Shown here: positions 1,396-8,435 of the stretch, in pieces
Position numbering within the stretch: position 1 is the stretch's first letter
Layout: every line of letters starts with the position of its first letter
Source of the DNA: a virus
Virus genome (UHGV): UHGV-1649846
Strand: one strand, 5' to 3'
DNA length: 11,193 nucleotides
Notes under the pieces: generated by a model
The model's input: the letters and a program-made list of their open reading frames with translations, nothing else
The model's database searches: none
What the model was told of the DNA's origin: nothing
Made by a program: the position numbers and the translations under genes

Positions 1396-1934
1396 TTTAC
1401 CCAACGAATACAGGAAAAAGCGGAGAACACCTTCGCCTCACCACGCTGGAAAGTGTCTGGATTCAGGGAAAACTACGTATGTGGGGGCGCTGGTCGTATA
1501 TTGGCGGTGGCAGGTCAGGGAATATGTTCAATCAGTTGTTGGCATCCAAAAAACTGACGAAAACAGCCATTAATGAAGCCCTGCGCAGAATGAAAAAAGC
1601 GGGAATAGAGAAAGCTGAGCTGGAAGCGTTTTTGCGAGAGATGATCAACGGCAAGCAAAAGAGCTGGCTGGCGCATTGTACTGATGCAGAGGCGTTATGT
1701 ATTGATCGAGTCATAAGTGAGGTGCTGGCAGAGCATCCAGGATTGATTTGCATTCTCCGGCAACGCTATGAAGGGCGGGGGATGACTAAGCGCAAAATGG
1801 CTGAATTGCTAAATGATGCACACCCAGAGTGGTGTTTTAGCACATGCGAAAAACGGATTGCTAATTGGTTAGCTGTTGCTGAGTATGCCCTACATATTCC
1901 CATGCGTGAATCATTTGCTGAGAAAATGGCTTGA
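1392..1934 (+). CDS. Late-gene antiterminator Q-like protein
   Basis: 180-aa ORF, last gene of a coupled three-gene unit, followed at once by a strong intrinsic terminator and then a cargo/lysis region, which is the canonical position of Q. Trp-rich N-terminal motif (LRMWGRWSY) resembles the small Q family of E. coli prophages; C-terminal helix-turn-helix-like segment. Confidence 0.5.
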   Translation: MIYPTNTGKSGEHLRLTTLESVWIQGKLRMWGRWSYIGGGRSGNMFNQLLASKKLTKTAINEALRRMKKAGIEKAELEAFLREMINGKQKSWLAHCTDAEALCIDRVISEVLAEHPGLICILRQRYEGRGMTKRKMAELLNDAHPEWCFSTCEKRIANWLAVAEYALHIPMRESFAEKMA

Positions 1935-2013
1935 TTTCTTACGTATAAACTGCTTCAATTTTGCTATGCTTCGCAAAGCTGTATCGCGAGGCGGATTGCA
2001 GACATGGACATCG
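1935..2013 (+). promoter_or_regulatory. Expected location of a PR'-like late promoter and Q-utilisation site (not resolved at base level)
   Basis: Positional inference only: ~80 bp between the Q stop and the tR'-like terminator. Candidate -35/-10 hexamers (TTGCTA 1952-1957, TATCGC near 1981) are weak. Confidence 0.3.
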
Positions 2014-2042
2014 TAAAAAAACCGCTTAATGCGGTTTTTTTA
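2014..2042 (+). terminator. Intrinsic terminator, tR'-like (A-tract / hairpin / T-tract, potentially bidirectional)
   Basis: AAAAAAA (2014-2020), stem ACCGC (2021-2025), loop TTAAT, stem GCGGT (2031-2035), TTTTTTT (2036-2042). Confidence 0.7.
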
Positions 2043-2078
2043 CGTCAGGAAAGCAGGGGAGAATGCTGCTAGTTGGGC

Positions 2079-2117
2079 AACTGGTCTTTCTGCTCCAAAT
2101 TATAACAGAGACCAGTT
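2079..2117. repeat. Inverted repeat AACTGGTCT ... AGACCAGTT (9-bp arms, 21-nt spacer)
   Basis: Arms at 2079-2087 and 2109-2117 are exact reverse complements, read directly. Confidence 0.5.
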
Positions 2118-2361
2118 ATAGTTTCGGTGCTGTGTTTTTTTACAATATTGTGATAACACATTGCTGGCGGGAGTTTTGATATTTCTTGGCAGGGGCTGAT
2201 GATGCGTTATCCTGATGTCGTCAACTCATATAAAATGAGATGAGAGATCATTGCAGGGTGGTTTGTAATTCGCTGTTTAGCGGGACAATATGTTGTCTGA
2301 TACAAGACACCCGACGCCTCAGATTACTATAATAAAGACGAAGCATCCTTTGTATTGACCA

Positions 2362-2387
2362 ACCGCCTGTTTAGGCGGTTCTTTTTG
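2362..2387 (+). terminator. Intrinsic terminator
   Basis: Stem ACCGCCT (2362-2368), loop GTTT, stem AGGCGGT (2373-2379), followed by a T-rich run (TCTTTTT). Confidence 0.6.
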
Positions 2388-2918
2388 GGCTGGTTTATTG
2401 TATGCCAAATGATTATTAAAAAGGTTGTGTTAATAACAAAATCCGAAATAATATGCCTGCATATTTTTATCTTGCTTATATTCTGCATATTGTGCATAGC
2501 AGGCTCATCCCTGCAATCAAAACTGTATGATGAGTATTTTTTGTTTTCCTTTTTTCCAGTCATCTGATGATGACCTGCTTCTTTTTAATCCGGATCGACA
2601 TCAGTTTTTTAAGATAATTCCTGCGAGTTATATGCATAAATGCCACAAACTCCGCATTTTATGTGGTTGGGAGTTGCCGGGCGCGCAGTGAGTTTGCTAA
2701 GAAAACTCCTGCATGGTGAATCCCCCTGTGCGGTGGGGTGATACCATTAACCTTTTCTGTCGCCGACAGGTATCACGAACATTTTGTTCACCGGGAGGCA
2801 CCCGGCACCATGTACTTCAATAGATTCTCTCCACATTATGGATATTCTTTCAGAATATCCCACGCAGACTTTGTGTAAATGTTAACAAATGTGCGTTTTA
2901 TTTGATCTGATTCGCTGT

Positions 2919-2948
2919 TTGAGCGTCCAAAACAACGGTATATATAAT
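2919..2948 (+). promoter_or_regulatory. Sigma70-like promoter for the lipoprotein cassette
   Basis: -35 TTGAGC (2919-2924), 17-18 bp spacer, -10 ATATAA/TATAAT (2942-2948); about 30 bp upstream of the RBS GAGGAAAA and the ATG at 2978. Confidence 0.45.
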
Positions 2949-2977
2949 CCTTTACTATATGACATATGTGAGGAAAA

Positions 2978-3406
2978 ATGGGTTTTCGTAGCGCATCAAT
3001 TCTTACGTTGATTATTAGTGGGATTATTATCGGGTGCACTGATGCTGTATCGACAAATTATCATGACCGTACATCATATTACTCCGATAAAGCAATAGAG
3101 ACACAGTATGTGAGTTCATCTGAACGTACTTCTGATGTTAGTGAGGATATCCGTCTGTATGCCCATCAAATCAAGAGCGCCATCGAAAAACAGTTCGGGG
3201 ATGCGAGTAAGTATTCAGGAAAAGAGTGTACACTGAGAATGCATATGGCCCCGAATGGCCTTCTACTGGAGGTTAAAAGAGAAAGTGGAGACCTCGATTT
3301 ATGTCGTGAAGCGATGAATGCGATAAAGAATGCTGATATACCTGCCCCCCCTTCGCCGGAAGTATATAAAGTATTTCAAAATGGGGTGCTGGATTTTAAA
3401 CCCTGA
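2978..3406 (+). CDS. Lipoprotein with a TolA C-terminal domain (domain III)-like fold
   Basis: 142 aa. Signal peptide with lipobox IIGC (Cys20), then a ~50-residue Ser/Thr/Asp-rich linker, then ~85 residues that align closely with my recollection of the E. coli TolA C-terminus, including both conserved Cys and the terminal VLDFKP. RBS GAGGAAAA precedes the ATG. Confidence 0.8.
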   Translation: MGFRSASILTLIISGIIIGCTDAVSTNYHDRTSYYSDKAIETQYVSSSERTSDVSEDIRLYAHQIKSAIEKQFGDASKYSGKECTLRMHMAPNGLLLEVKRESGDLDLCREAMNAIKNADIPAPPSPEVYKVFQNGVLDFKP

Positions 3407-3469
3407 TATTTATTGTTTTGTAATAAACGGTTTCGGCTTAGGTTTGTTCTGACACAGCTACGGCACTGA

Positions 3470-3481
3470 GCTAAATTTAGC
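3470..3481. repeat. Perfect 12-bp palindrome GCTAAATTTAGC between the two lipoprotein genes
   Basis: Read directly. A second short palindrome GCTCTGAGC lies at 3491-3499. Confidence 0.5.
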
Positions 3482-3556
3482 GGATAGTCAGCTCTGAGCC
3501 AGTGGCGGACGTAACAACTACTATTGCTGAGATTTTAATGGATTGAGGAGCAAGAA

Positions 3557-3952
3557 GTGGGATTAAAGAAAATCGTTATGTTGACTTTTTGGGTCGGTTT
3601 TGTTGCGGGATGCACACCTTTACACCCTTCAGATTGCCACAAAACTACTGCTACAGGTAGTTGCAGTTCAGGACGCTGGGATGATCAGGATGAATGGGGG
3701 GCGCAAGCGCGGGGAATCAGAGCTGCAATTAATGCCAAACTTGATGAGCCGCATAACTGGAAAGGGAAAAAATGCAGGTTGCATATGGAATTCTCTCAGG
3801 ATGGCACGGCGTTAAAAATATCTACCAGTAACGGTGATAAAGCCTATTGCGAAGCGATAAAGTCCGCAGCTCATAAAGCCAAATTTCCGGCCTTCAACAA
3901 TCCGGAAGTCTACAGAGATTTTCAGAAATCTGGCTTTGACATGCGAGGTTAG
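3557..3952 (+). CDS. Second, more divergent TolA-domain-III-like lipoprotein (tandem paralogue)
   Basis: 131 aa from a GTG start 6 nt after a strong SD (GAGGAG 3545-3550). Lipobox VAGC (Cys19). C-terminal ~80 residues keep the TolA-III pattern GK.C.L...DG...G...C.A...A...P....VY..F with both Cys conserved. Confidence 0.7.
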   Translation: MGLKKIVMLTFWVGFVAGCTPLHPSDCHKTTATGSCSSGRWDDQDEWGAQARGIRAAINAKLDEPHNWKGKKCRLHMEFSQDGTALKISTSNGDKAYCEAIKSAAHKAKFPAFNNPEVYRDFQKSGFDMRG

Positions 3953-4077
3953 CTCTTCAATTACTATATCTCATTCATAGCAAACTGACAGATTTGATGA
4001 TGTTCTATATACGAAACCTGTGATGTCAAGTCTGAGCTAATACAAATAAACATAATATCAGAGAAATACATTTTATT

Positions 4078-4101
4078 AGCTCGCTACGGCGAGCTTTTTA
4101 T
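4078..4101 (+). terminator. Intrinsic terminator closing the lipoprotein cassette
   Basis: Stem AGCTCGC (4078-4084), loop TACG, stem GCGAGCT (4089-4095), then TTTTTA. Confidence 0.6.
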
Positions 4102-4203
4102 ATTGCATCGTCTCCAGCATATATATCAATTAAGGCTCTGATTGATGTGTCTGAAAGCCTACACATAATAACTATGCCATCCGTTCCGTGCGGAGGTGAG
4201 GCT

Positions 4204-4419
4204 ATGAAATCCATGGACAAAATTTCAACAGGCATTGCCTACGGCACCTCCGCAGGCAGTGCTGGCTACTGGTTTTTACAGTTGCTCGATAGAGTAACTC
4301 CGTCACAGTGGGCTGCAATCGGTGTGCTGGGTAGTCTGGTATTTGGCCTGCTGACGTACCTGACAAACCTTTATTTCAAGATTAAAGAAGATAAGCGCAA
4401 GGCTGCGAGAGGTGAATAA
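4204..4419 (+). CDS. Class II holin, phage 21 S-type pinholin with dual-start motif
   Basis: Begins [26 protein letters not shown]..., nearly the S21 sequence as I recall it. Met1 and Met4 give the antiholin/holin dual start. SD GGAGGTGAGG at 4191-4200. The track's longer ORF from 4147 lacks an RBS. Stop overlaps the endolysin start (TAATG). Confidence 0.85.
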
Positions 4420-4916
4420 TGCCTCCATCATTACGAAAAGTCGTTGCTGCTGCTATTGGTGGCGGAGCAATTGCTATAGCATCAGTGCTAATCACTGGCC
4501 CAAGTGGTAACGATGGTCTGGAAGGTGTCAGCTACATACCATACAAAGATATTGTTGGTGTATGGACTGTATGTCACGGGCATACAGGAAAAGACATCAT
4601 GCTCGGTAAAACGTATACCAAAGCAGAATGCAAAGCCCTCCTGAATAAAGACCTTGCCACGGTCGCCAGACAAATTAACCCGTACATCAAAGTCGATATA
4701 CCGGAAACAATGCGCGGCGCTCTTTACTCATTCGTTTACAACGTGGGTGCTGGCAATTTCAGAACATCGACGCTTCTTCGCAAAATAAACCAGGGCGATA
4801 TCAAAGGCGCATGTGATCAGCTACGTCGCTGGACATATGCTGGCGGTAAGCAATGGAAAGGTCTCATGACTCGTCGTGAGATTGAGCGTGAAATCTGTTT
4901 GTGGGGTCAGCAATGA
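4419..4916 (+). CDS. SAR endolysin (phage 21 R-type lysozyme)
   Basis: 165 aa. Gly/Ala-rich weakly hydrophobic N-terminal signal-arrest-release segment ([20 protein letters not shown]), then a lysozyme-like domain. Sits immediately after the holin and overlaps the Rz start (ATGA). Confidence 0.85.
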
Positions 4917-5377: not shown

Positions 5378-5514
5378 AATCTTAACTACAATATGATTCA
5401 TTTTGATGATTGTTTCATAAGGAACAGTGAAGTAAGATCTAAGAGGAGTTAAATTTTATACAGTATAATCATAATATTGCAGCAAGGTGGTTATAATTGA
5501 AAGAATATTTAGAT

Positions 5515-6972
5515 ATGAATACATCTCATGTAAGAGTTGTTACTCATATGTGTGGGTTCCTAGTTTGGCTCTATAGTCTTTCAATGTTGCCACCAATGGT
5601 TGTAGCATTGTTTTATAAAGAAAAAAGCCTGTTCGTTTTCTTTATAACTTTCGTTATATTTTTTTGCATTGGTGGCGGAGCGTGGTATACAACTAAGAAA
5701 TCTGGCATTCAATTACGTACCCGTGATGGGTTTATTATAATTGTAATGTTTTGGATTTTGTTTTCTGTTATTAGTGCATTCCCTTTATGGATTGACTCAG
5801 AACTTAATTTAACGTTCATTGATGCTCTGTTTGAAGGGGTTTCTGGAATAACAACAACAGGAGCAACTGTAATTGATGATGTTAGTTCATTACCTCGGGC
5901 ATATTTGTACTATCGGTCACAGTTAAATTTTATAGGTGGTTTAGGAGTTATTGTTCTAGCGGTTGCTGTATTGCCATTATTGGGTATTGGTGGTGCAAAG
6001 CTTTATCAGTCAGAAATGCCGGGGCCATTTAAGGATGACAAACTCACTCCCCGCCTGGCCGATACGTCACGGACACTGTGGATAACTTATTCTTTATTAG
6101 GTATTGCTTGTATTGTCTGTTATAGACTTGCAGGAATGCCTTTGTTTGATGCTATTTGTCACGGGATTTCCACAGTTTCGCTTGGTGGTTTCTCAACTCA
6201 TAGCGAGAGTATCGGATATTTTAATAACTATTTGGTTGAGCTGGTGGCTGGTTCTTTTTCCCTGCTATCGGCTTTCAACTTCACTCTTTGGTATATTGTT
6301 ATTAGCAGGAAAACGATAAAACCTTTAATCAGAGATATTGAACTTCGTTTCTTTCTGTTAATAGCCTTAGGGGTGATCATTGTTACCTCTTTCCAGGTCT
6401 GGCATATAGGTATGTATGACTTGCATGGAAGTTTTATTCATTCGTTTTTTCTTGCCAGCTCCATGCTCACTGATAATGGTTTAGCTACGCAGGATTATGC
6501 AAGTTGGCCCACGCACACGATAGTGTTTTTGCTGTTGTCAAGTTTCTTTGGGGGATGTATAGGTTCAACTTGTGGTGGAATTAAGTCACTTCGATTTCTT
6601 ATACTTTTCAAACAAAGCAAACACGAGATAAATCAGCTTTCTCATCCCAGAGCGTTGTTGAGTGTAAATGTAGGAGGGAAGATAGTTACAGATCGTGTAA
6701 TGAGGTCTGTATGGAGTTTCTTTTTTCTTTATACTCTCTTCACGGTGTTTTTTATACTGGTGTTAAATGGTATGGGATATGATTTTCTTACATCATTTGC
6801 AACAGTGGCTGCATGTATTAATAATATGGGATTAGGTTTTGGGGCTACTGCATCGTCATTCGGAGTGCTTAATGACATTGCAAAATGCTTAATGTGCATA
6901 GCTATGATTCTTGGTCGCCTTGAAATTTATCCTGTTATTATATTGTTTTCAGGTTTTTTTTGGCGCTCCTAA
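5515..6972 (+). CDS. trkG: TrkH/TrkG-family potassium uptake membrane protein
   Basis: 485 aa from the ATG at 5515 (MNTSHVRVV...), multi-pass membrane protein of the Trk K+ transporter family, matching my recollection of E. coli TrkG. Visibly AT-rich. An upstream in-frame TTG at 5497 preceded by SD AAGGTGG (5485-5490) would add 6 residues. Confidence 0.9.
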   Translation: MNTSHVRVVTHMCGFLVWLYSLSMLPPMVVALFYKEKSLFVFFITFVIFFCIGGGAWYTTKKSGIQLRTRDGFIIIVMFWILFSVISAFPLWIDSELNLTFIDALFEGVSGITTTGATVIDDVSSLPRAYLYYRSQLNFIGGLGVIVLAVAVLPLLGIGGAKLYQSEMPGPFKDDKLTPRLADTSRTLWITYSLLGIACIVCYRLAGMPLFDAICHGISTVSLGGFSTHSESIGYFNNYLVELVAGSFSLLSAFNFTLWYIVISRKTIKPLIRDIELRFFLLIALGVIIVTSFQVWHIGMYDLHGSFIHSFFLASSMLTDNGLATQDYASWPTHTIVFLLLSSFFGGCIGSTCGGIKSLRFLILFKQSKHEINQLSHPRALLSVNVGGKIVTDRVMRSVWSFFFLYTLFTVFFILVLNGMGYDFLTSFATVAACINNMGLGFGATASSFGVLNDIAKCLMCIAMILGRLEIYPVIILFSGFFWRS

Positions 6973-7109: not shown

Positions 7110-8435
7110 ATGAGCGAGAAATTAAAGATAGTCTATCGCCCATTACAAGAATTGTCACCGTATGCGCACAACGCCAGGACGCACAGTACTGAGCAGGTGG
7201 CACAACTGGTAGAAAGTATTAAGCAATTCGGCTGGACTAATCCGGTGCTGATTGACGAAAAGGGCGAAATTATTGCGGGTCACGGTCGTGTTATGGCGGC
7301 TGAAATGCTCAAAATGGATTCTGTTCCGGTCATTGTTCTGTCTGGCCTGACGGATGAGCAGAAAAAGGCGTACCGCCTGGCAGATAATCGCCTGCCGATG
7401 AATGCTGGCTGGGATGAAGATCTGTTGCGGATGGAGCTGTCGGACCTAATCAATGCTGATTTTGATGTCTCCCTGACAGGCTTCATCCCGACAGAAATTG
7501 ATGAACTGTTGACGGATGTTTTGCCCGGTACCGGACGTTGCGTCGTGCTGGCTATACCGGGAAAATTTTTATCGTTGTTGATGATGAAGATAAGACACGG
7601 CATCAGTACATGGCTGAATTTGGTGAACAGGTGCTGGTGTTTTCCAAAGCCGATATCGCCAGTCGTTTTGACGAAGCCGATAATTTCTGTGACCGCCGCT
7701 CAATTTTTTACGCCCGTAATGCCTGTTTCGACCTGGCAAAACTGGTCGGGTGTAAATACTTCATTCAGCTCGATGATGATTATCACGAGTTCCAGTTTCG
7801 GGTGGATCGCAACTATGACCAGGCCTATTTTCCGATAAGGAAACTGGATGCGATCCTTTCTGAAATGCTGGCGTACTACGAATCAATACCTGCTCTTTCC
7901 ATCGCTATGTCGCAGGGCGGGGATTTTCTTGGTGACAATGGCGGCCATGCTTCGTGGGTGAAACGCAAGGCAATGAACAGCTTTATCTGTTCGGTTGATC
8001 GACCGTTCTCATTCATGGGGCGCATTAACGAGGATGTGAATACGTACACGAATCTCGGTCGCTGTGGTGAATTGTTTATGACGATCGGTGCTGTCCAGTT
8101 AGGGCAGAAACAGACGCAGAAAAACAGCGGCGGAATGACCGAGCTGTATCTGGATTCCGGAATCAGCGAAGGAACTGGGTATTGATGTTCGCGATATTTC
8201 CCCGGCTGAGCGGGCCAGCATGGATGGCGTGGTGGCCGGAGATACAACCTACAGGGAATGGTTTTTGCGTCAGCCTTACACCAGACAAAAACAGATTGTG
8301 GGGGAAACCCGAGCAAAGCTGATTCGGGATGGTGGTATGTCGCCAGATGAATTTTACACCGATAAAGGCGAATGGCTGACGCTGAAGCAGCTCCGTGAGC
8401 GTGATGCACAGGTATTCAGAAAAGCAGGGATTTAA
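7110..8435 (+). pseudogene. ParB/sulfiredoxin-like N-terminal domain gene, apparently disrupted by two frameshifts
   Basis: Frame 0 from the ATG at 7110 gives ~140 aa of plausible ParB-like sequence (..IIAGHGRVMAA..) and then degenerates. A second frame is open from 7505 to 8185 (DxD-containing segment) and the first frame reopens from 8139 to 8435. Three collinear overlapping segments with one terminator at the end suggest a single decayed gene of roughly 440 codons. Confidence 0.5.

Follow-up and report, generated by a model that had tools for sequence, protein, structure and literature searches.

TolA domain III lipoproteins at the Q-to-holin junction

The DNA analysed here, a stretch of 11,193 nucleotides (nt) from UHGV virus genome UHGV-1649846 (hereafter the window), is a portion of a defective lambdoid (Rac/Qin-like) E. 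coli prophage. Between its Q-like late antiterminator gene (1392-1934, + strand) and its S21-type holin gene (4204-4419, + strand) lie two short open reading frames, ORF1 (2978-3406, + strand) and ORF2 (3557-3952, + strand), each of which encodes a predicted lipoprotein that ends in a copy of domain III of the host protein TolA. The initial annotation had placed two lipoprotein genes at this junction, and on that point it is borne out by the Shine-Dalgarno (SD) sequences, lipoboxes, Pfam matches and substitution ratios described below. It overlooked both the TolA domain III (TolA-III) identity of the two proteins and the two-module make-up of the block that they form.

ORF1 specifies 142 amino acids (aa) and is preceded by the SD sequence GAGG (2970-2973). 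Its lipoprotein signal, MGFRSASILTLIISGIIIG-C-TD, runs to Cys20 of the lipobox IIIG-C20, with Thr at position +2, and is followed by a disordered tether (residues 21-53) and by TolA domain III (residues 54-142), which ends LDFKP. ORF2 (131 aa) begins at a GTG codon downstream of the SD sequence GAGGAG (3545-3550); its signal, VGLKKIVMLTFWVGFVAG-C-TP, contains the lipobox VAG-C19, again with Thr at +2, and after Cys19 come a conserved N-terminal segment with two further Cys residues and then TolA domain III (residues 46-131). A protein was classed as a lipoprotein if it displayed a positive n-region, a hydrophobic core, a lipobox of the form [LVI][ASTVI][GAS]C and no Asp at +2, and both proteins display all of these features, including the PROSITE-type lipobox pattern. 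As Thr occupies +2 and the Asp retention signal is absent, the predicted anchoring site of both is the outer membrane, at its inner leaflet.

The lipid-site Cys and the Cys pair that forms the TolA disulfide are invariant in 29 homologues. The ratio of nonsynonymous to synonymous substitution rates (dN/dS) against diverged alleles is 0.26-0.39 for ORF1 and 0.07-0.16 for ORF2, demonstrating that both are under purifying selection and are therefore real genes. Each of four ORF1 allele classes retains the complete architecture. The RefSeq annotation of an identical genome, produced by the Prokaryotic Genome Annotation Pipeline (PGAP), drops the lipoprotein signal peptide from both proteins. ORF1 is labelled a 'tolA, incomplete, missing N-terminus' pseudogene (L001 10247-10507, window 3146-3406), and ORF2 is begun at an internal ATG (L001 10679-11053, window 3578-3952), which would lose the positive n-region. 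The GTG start at 3557 is backed by the SD sequence together with the conserved MG/VG-(x)-KKIV N-terminus of the homologues, and the 'tolA, incomplete' label on ORF1 is an annotation artefact.

The N-terminus of mature ORF2 (residues 20-47; 3614-3697), PLHPSxCHKTTATGSCSSGRWDDQDEWG, with its two Cys residues, is nearly invariant from E. coli to Serratia. AlphaFold predicts this conserved segment to be disordered, with a predicted local distance difference test score (pLDDT) below 50.

Fold and ligand-binding sites

Both proteins match the Pfam TolA C-terminal family, PF06519, for which the cut-off is 25 bits (ORF1, 82.6 bits, E 2e-23; ORF2, 54.6 bits, E 1e-14). The ORF1 domain is 57% identical to residues 334-421 of E. 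coli TolA, up to the shared C-terminus LDFKP, and the ORF2 domain displays ∼33% identity to TolA-III. The AlphaFold 2 model of the ORF1 domain (pLDDT ∼90) superimposes on TolA-III in its complexes with the filamentous-phage protein g3p with a root mean square deviation (rmsd) of 0.6-0.7 Å (0.6 Å to 2x9a_B), and the model of ORF2 lies within 1.0-1.3 Å of TolA-III (1.1 Å to 3qdp). Foldseek assigned the TolA-III fold to both models with a probability of 1.0 (rmsd 0.6-1.3 Å overall). The two proteins thus belong to PF06519 but are not TolA orthologues. When aligned to the model of full-length TolA (NF007065/TIGR02794) they covered only positions 293-386 of 387, and their NF007065 scores of 108 and 54 bits fell short of the cut-off (213). 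Domains I and II of TolA are missing from both, and it is a signal peptide and a low-confidence tether that precede the conserved domain. As neither domain I nor domain II is present, the proteins could not be energised by, or coupled to, TolQR.

In the host Tol-Pal system, TolA-III serves as the periplasmic receptor to which group A colicins and the filamentous-phage protein g3p/pIII have to attach; its ligands include colicins A and N and the N-terminus of TolB. The C-terminal β-strand of the domain, with D418 and K420, is the common site of TolB, colicin N and g3p (PMC4339652), and colicin A occupies L375-P380 together with K368, K379 and K396 (PMC3365938). In ORF1 the C-terminal strand, LDFKP, is an exact match to that of TolA, and the colicin A site is mostly kept: LLEVKR corresponds to LLDIKP, K379 and K396 are retained and K368 is replaced with His. 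The equivalent strand of ORF2, FDMRG, preserves the character of the TolA strand. Its colicin A site is rewritten, with ALKIST in place of the peptide, Glu in place of K368 and His in place of K396.

The architecture extends well beyond this prophage. A profile search against 1.84 billion representatives identified 599 clusters at 50% identity (E ≤ 0.001), and among the 150 best matches a lipobox is found in 54 of the 76 short representatives (105-165 aa), many of which end LDFK/R-P/L. Judged from these sequences, the combination of a lipoprotein signal with TolA-III constitutes a large family. The matching PHROG, 5772, is listed as being of 'unknown function'. A recent capture from a sequenced tolA is not supported: all proteins that a word-based search with ORF1 brought up were short, and an 82% nucleotide match to a gene annotated as 'tolA' proved to be another prophage ORF1 allele.

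The block is composite accessory cargo

Comparison with related loci delimits a block-specific unit of ∼1.4 kilobases (kb; 2813-4177, + strand). Its left edge is set by the STnc100 small RNA (sRNA) element (2681-2867, + strand; a match to Rfam RF02076 at 83 bits, where the gathering score is 47), in which similarity to canonical copies stops at 2812. At the right edge, other S21-type holin prophages that harbour different cargo, including the essD region of K-12 DLP12, join at 4166-4189. Of 5426 complete E. coli genomes, 768 (∼14%; those in which at least 80% of 2600-4450 was covered) harbour the block with an identity of at least 99%, and the same block is present in all 80 viral-contig loci retrieved from IMG/VR with the ORF1 protein as query. 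It is also carried by the sequenced temperate phage mEp460, the Q (an Antiterm-type protein) and endolysin region of which differ from those of the window. Within the 80 loci the left mosaic breakpoints are at 2649, 2690 and 2787, all described as falling inside the STnc100 element, and those on the right are at the holin end (4420) or within Rz. The initial annotation had proposed aligning this junction across lambdoid prophages to list alternative cargo. Such a comparison shows that the block is swapped between different Q and lysis modules, and that nanS-p, DUF826, methyltransferase, AraC and PmrD genes occupy the same interval elsewhere. The GC content of the block (0.37-0.48) differs little from that of the Q and lysis genes (0.44-0.53). 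The distribution of the block and its exchange between modules show that it is accessory cargo, inserted in the sense orientation of the late operon.

The cargo is itself a composite of two separable, independently mobile one-gene modules arranged in tandem. In two prophages (L095 and L096) an ORF1 allele of 91% identity shares 2601-3407 with the window; homology ends at the ORF1 stop codon, and further copies of STnc100 follow. ORF1-type genes, of which there are several allele classes, were found only in E. coli and Shigella, and in every case they are flanked by a Q gene on one side and by a holin or holin remnants on the other. The distribution of the ORF2 type is broader, and homology to stand-alone members is confined to 3520-3955. 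Alone, it lies directly after the relaxase gene nikB on ∼600 IncI1/B/O/K/Z plasmids, where the homologue is 87% identical and begins 67 nt past nikB, and it follows a nikB remnant on pO157 (loci of these plasmids: L003 4995-5426; L004 3079-3510; L103 3995-4426). Homologues at 78-89% identity are present in many Enterobacterales, and single chromosomal genes occur in Enterobacter kobei, Serratia marcescens and, at a prophage end, Citrobacter freundii. The S. marcescens gene (L089/L090 5001-7736) adjoins GmrSD_N and HEPN genes in a neighbourhood resembling a defence island.

Terminator, promoter-like site and palindrome

The initial annotation viewed the two genes as a cassette with its own promoter, terminator and possible operator, and every feature that it named is found at the position given. 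The terminator is present: a 7-bp stem with five GC pairs (4078-4095, + strand) is followed by a T-run that extends to 4101 and includes T5, with a folding free energy (dG) of −13 kcal/mol and a z-score of −2.9. The holin start is 103 nt farther on. Of the 77 related loci for which this region was recovered, 71 have the terminator intact, and by sequence it has the properties of a good intrinsic terminator.

The proposed sigma70 promoter, TTGAGC-18-TATAAT (2919-2948, + strand), is present as a site that agrees with the consensus at 10/12 positions and has a predicted transcription start at ∼2955, but its quality is at chance frequency and the autonomy of the cassette is not established. The placement of the −10 element 30 nt before the ORF1 ATG is mildly notable, being expected by chance in ∼1-2% of cases. 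The −10 sequence TATAAT is intact in 79 of the 80 viral-contig loci, those where the region was recovered, although all of these copies of the block are at least 99% identical and promoter conservation is therefore uninformative. In more distant ORF1 alleles the upstream DNA is unrelated to that of the window.

The perfect 12-bp palindrome GCTAAATTTAGC (3470-3481) between the two genes, suggested to be an operator, does not sustain that role. There are four perfect 12-bp palindromes in the window against 3.4 expected, and this one, present as a single copy, is broken in 2 of 77 copies of the block and is not palindromic in ORF2 homologues. It bears no resemblance to the Fur, LexA, CRP, lambda-operator, PhoP or OmpR consensus sequences, the ones against which it was compared. 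The RNA between ORF1 and ORF2 has no unusual structure (z −0.8), and no terminator was found between the genes. Stand-alone ORF2 homologues have upstream promoter-like elements (TTGAAA-17-AAGAAT and similar) that are degenerate in the window; as these elements have decayed and no terminator intervenes, ORF2 is probably co-transcribed with ORF1. Among the features of 2919-4101, only ORF1, ORF2 and the terminator exceed chance. Two apparent mosaic breakpoints in this region, at 2936 and 3480, are insertion sequences and not recombination: in L076 an IS1 at window position 2936 separates the −35 from the −10 element of the promoter-like site, and in L053 an IS5 sits in the palindrome (window 3477-3480, TTAG target).

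Late-transcription region, STnc100 and the stx position

Three prophages that otherwise differ (the window, L096 and L087) share, almost without change, a block of ∼70 bp directly after the DUF1133 Q gene. From its position, this block (1925-1995, + strand) is a putative late promoter and Q-utilisation site (PR'/qut). After the leader comes a strong intrinsic terminator (2016-2045, + strand; dG −19.7 kcal/mol, z −5.8), the presumed tR'; at this place the stems differ between the three prophages and a T-run follows each. The arrangement is as expected for a Q-dependent late promoter with its leader and tR', and 1925-2045 probably supplies these elements, together with qut, for a Q family that has received little study. 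A weak isrK-like Rfam match covers 1968-2041. Two further terminators, at 2361-2380 and 4078-4101, lie between tR' and the holin. The former is part of a short segment (2304-2390) in which a promoter-like AAGACA-18-TATAAT (10/12) is followed ∼30 nt on by the terminator and a T-run. This segment, for which there was no match in Rfam, could possibly encode a small RNA of ∼45 nt in the otherwise empty gap that corresponds to the position of stx.

The STnc100 element of the window departs from canonical copies at ∼2812, where the canonical GC-rich terminator is replaced by an AT-rich hairpin that lacks a U-tract. As the element is without its canonical terminator, read-through from it is a possible second source of transcripts for the cargo genes; no convincing STnc100 promoter was found in the window. 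In related prophages three to four STnc100 copies in the Q-to-holin interval bracket single cargo genes (L087 4468-7148; L095/L096 4704-6061; L095 also 2589-2802). STnc100 may serve as a recombination linker in the shuffling of cargo.

The statement that the cassette occupies the same slot as stx is accurate only for the broader interval between Q and the holin. The order in Stx1 and Stx2 phages is Q, (tRNAs), stxAB, STnc100, nanS-p esterase, DUF1378, DUF826 and holin, and the stx slot proper is the segment between Q/tR' with the tRNA genes and STnc100. The block is downstream of STnc100, which is the position of nanS-p, whereas the position of stx is upstream of the element, and the equivalent interval of the window (2046-2680) is empty. 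In L087 and L101, diverged ORF1 alleles are found at the true position of stx, immediately after the tRNA genes.

Prophage setting

Positions 1900-4200 of the window are 100% identical to several complete E. coli chromosomes. In an identical genome the block is flanked on one side by hokD, DUF1367, YbcO and DUF1133 genes, and on the other by essD, rrrD, Rz, trkG, ynaK and pinR. The window itself encodes a DUF1367 protein (506-1105), a YbcO nuclease (1105-1395) and then the Q-like protein, which matches Pfam DUF1133 (E 3e-106), PHROG 753 'anti-termination protein Q-like' (E 3e-78) and, weakly, Phage_antitermQ. The gap of ∼1 kb between the Q-like gene and the cargo genes yielded no convincing genes and no tRNA genes. 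The holin, annotated as essD in the identical genome, has a dual-start MKSM sequence (Pfam Phage_holin_2_1, E 5e-35) and is the first of the lysis genes, followed by the lysozyme gene (4419-4916), Rz/Rz1 (spanins) and trkG. The latter, a potassium-transporter gene (5497-6972) with a low GC content (0.32-0.42), is directly after Rz/Rz1 as in the Rac prophage and is a second cargo gene within the window. Farther downstream, two overlapping ORFs in different frames (7110-8185), one with a ParB-N domain (7110-7838) and the other with a TET-associated glycosyltransferase domain (7538-8185), have the appearance of what is left of a phage DNA-modification module after a frameshift.

Discussion

We propose, as a reading whose chances of being right or wrong we consider about equal, that ORF1 and ORF2 are outer-membrane-tethered TolA-III decoys that confer on the lysogen, or on the plasmid host, tolerance to Tol-dependent colicins or filamentous phages. 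Each lipoprotein would consist of a tether of ∼30 residues and a TolA-III copy, and would lie just beneath the outer membrane as a dead end, where it would catch colicin translocation domains or phage g3p ahead of the real TolA, rendering the cell tolerant. The two diverged paralogues would probably serve different ligands. In the lysogen, weak transcription through both ORF1 and ORF2, started at the promoter-like site (2919-2948), would stop at the 4078-4101 terminator and leave the holin silent, and after induction Q-modified polymerase from the promoter beside Q would pass all of the terminators. A strong terminator directly before the holin, with none between ORF1 and ORF2, is consistent with such regulation. 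The principle has precedents: Levengood-Freyermuth and co-workers reportedly found in 1993 that free periplasmic TolA-III makes cells tolerant to colicins, and Boeke, Model and Zinder are said to have observed in 1982 that the g3p/pIII of a resident filamentous phage gives tolerance to Tol-dependent colicins and phage. With respect to the plasmid-borne homologues, the pili of IncI plasmids are those used by the TolA-dependent filamentous phage IF1. The g3p of IF1 binds TolA-III (PDB 2x9a). Colicin N binds TolA-III 40-fold more tightly than does TolB (1 versus 40 μM; PMC4339652), and a decoy should therefore trap invaders in preference to TolB.

Several observations weigh against this proposal. 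The window contains three promoter-like sites of 10/12 quality against 3.5 ± 1.9 in dinucleotide shuffles, and in the 91%-identical ORF1 allele, the one allele that is informative on this point, the −10 is altered from TATAAT to TGTAAT. The PADLOC defence-system models gave no match at E ≤ 0.1, and a literature search found no paper on prophage or plasmid TolA-like lipoproteins. Some members of the family are single chromosomal genes in ordinary, non-mobile neighbourhoods, and these could point to a housekeeping role in the envelope. Furthermore, ORF1, with its TolB-binding strand, could perturb Tol-Pal rather than be neutral, and the placement of the genes in the late operon suits a role at induction equally well.

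These last points lead to the main rival to the decoy, late-phase inactivation of Tol-Pal, which we consider unlikely. On this model the proteins, expressed mainly late and under the control of Q, bind the N-terminus of TolB (and perhaps Pal or CpoB) and switch off Tol-Pal before lysis, which would loosen the outer membrane, increase blebbing and help the release or spread of progeny. The location of the block in the late operon, immediately before the holin, endolysin and spanin genes, fits this model, as do the retention by ORF1 of the exact TolB-binding strand LDFKP and the fact that an autonomous promoter is unproven. Blocking the TolB-binding strand causes a full tol phenotype with leakage (PMC4339652), and tol-pal defects lead to heavy vesiculation (PMC7391070), both of which also favour it. 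The affinity of TolA for TolB is, however, weak (40 μM), spanins are already encoded by the prophage, and the terminator that separates the block from the holin is better suited to expression in the lysogen. Moreover, ORF2 homologues occur on conjugative plasmids and chromosomes with no lysis genes nearby, which means that the family has to be of use to cells that are growing. A related question is whether the block is self-contained at all. It is doubtful, though it retains an appreciable share of the probability, that 2919-2948 is a chance AT-rich motif and that the genes ride only on the late transcript or on read-through from STnc100. In addition to the shuffle frequency of the site (3 versus 3.5) and the TGTAAT of the 91% allele, this view draws on the mosaic unit, which never runs from promoter to terminator but always includes the 3' half of STnc100 and usually the holin, and on the substitution of the STnc100 terminator by a hairpin without a U-tract. 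Conversely, a perfect TATAAT with a plausible −35 is positioned 30 nt before the gene start, each of the diverged ORF1 alleles is preceded, in upstream DNA that is unrelated, by an AT-rich −10-like element of its own, and stand-alone relatives of ORF2 must possess their own promoters, while a terminator in front of the holin suggests a need to halt transcription in the lysogenic state.

An envelope role unrelated to invaders, in which the lipoproteins would dock a Tol-Pal component or some other periplasmic protein at the outer membrane and would be carried by mobile elements as a fitness factor, appears rather improbable. The size of the family (599 clusters, with a lipobox in 54 of 76 short representatives) and the stable chromosomal neighbourhoods of some members are in keeping with such a function, and the near-invariant mature N-terminus of ORF2, predicted to be disordered, hints at a partner. 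No partner is known, however, and the enrichment of the genes in prophages and conjugative plasmids, together with the single GmrSD/HEPN neighbourhood, fits a function in conflict better. That the genes are decaying remnants, ORF1 being a fragment of a tolA pseudogene in a functionless block, is extremely improbable. The 'tolA, incomplete, missing N-terminus' label of PGAP and the defective state of the surrounding prophage could be taken to indicate decay, but this reading is already contradicted by the selection and architecture data: ORF1 is complete, with an SD sequence, signal peptide and lipobox, dN/dS is well below 1, an identical copy is present in the sequenced phage mEp460, and four allele classes keep the architecture.

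As a sequence feature, the block is an ordinary prophage moron. Like the lambdoid morons (bor and lom of lambda, gp15 of HK97, stx and nanS-p) it comprises extra genes, variably present between conserved modules, and it shares with them the sense orientation of the late operon, its own terminator and, in the case of stx and nanS-p, the Q-to-holin interval. It differs in that its promoter is unproven, it consists of two tandem modules and it carries a copied host receptor domain rather than a toxin or esterase. Small outer-membrane lipoproteins that protect their carrier against phages or colicins sharing an entry route are exemplified by Llp of T5, Cor of phi80, N15 and HK022, and TraT of F. 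The proteins described here resemble these in being small, phage- or plasmid-encoded and, by prediction, located in the outer membrane. There is no sequence relationship between the two groups, and, whereas Llp and Cor bind and block FhuA itself, the block proteins would mimic a periplasmic receptor and bind the invader. Compared with host TolA, ORF1 (57% identity) and ORF2 (∼33%) have the same domain III fold, disulfide and C-terminal β-strand; the host protein possesses a transmembrane domain I and a helical domain II, in place of which the block proteins have a lipoprotein signal and no coupling to the proton-motive force. The engineered periplasmic TolA-III is a laboratory construct, and the block would be its natural, lipid-anchored counterpart, a receptor copy that titrates the ligand. 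In resident-phage tolerance, by contrast, g3p/pIII is the ligand that blocks TolA.

Our data raise the possibility, held here with somewhat less than even confidence, that lipid-anchored stand-alone TolA-III proteins are a large, uncharacterised family of periplasmic receptor decoys, disseminated on prophages and IncI-type conjugative plasmids and present also as chromosomal orphans. Such a family would provide passive immunity against filamentous phages and Tol-dependent bacteriocins, diverged copies in tandem would widen the range of invaders trapped, and recombination at the repeated STnc100 elements would reshuffle the cargo of the Q-to-holin interval. As a decoy strategy this is plausible, apparently undescribed and widely distributed. 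If the proposal is correct, a determinant of tolerance to colicins and filamentous phages has gone unrecognised in approximately one in seven sequenced E. coli strains, in hundreds of IncI-type plasmids and in pO157. This would have a bearing on bacteriocin-based competition in the gut, and also on colicin and phage therapeutics and on efforts to combat resistance plasmids with pilus-specific filamentous phages. It would, in addition, represent a new mode of host protection by mobile elements, in which a receptor domain of the host is copied and tethered at the point of entry.

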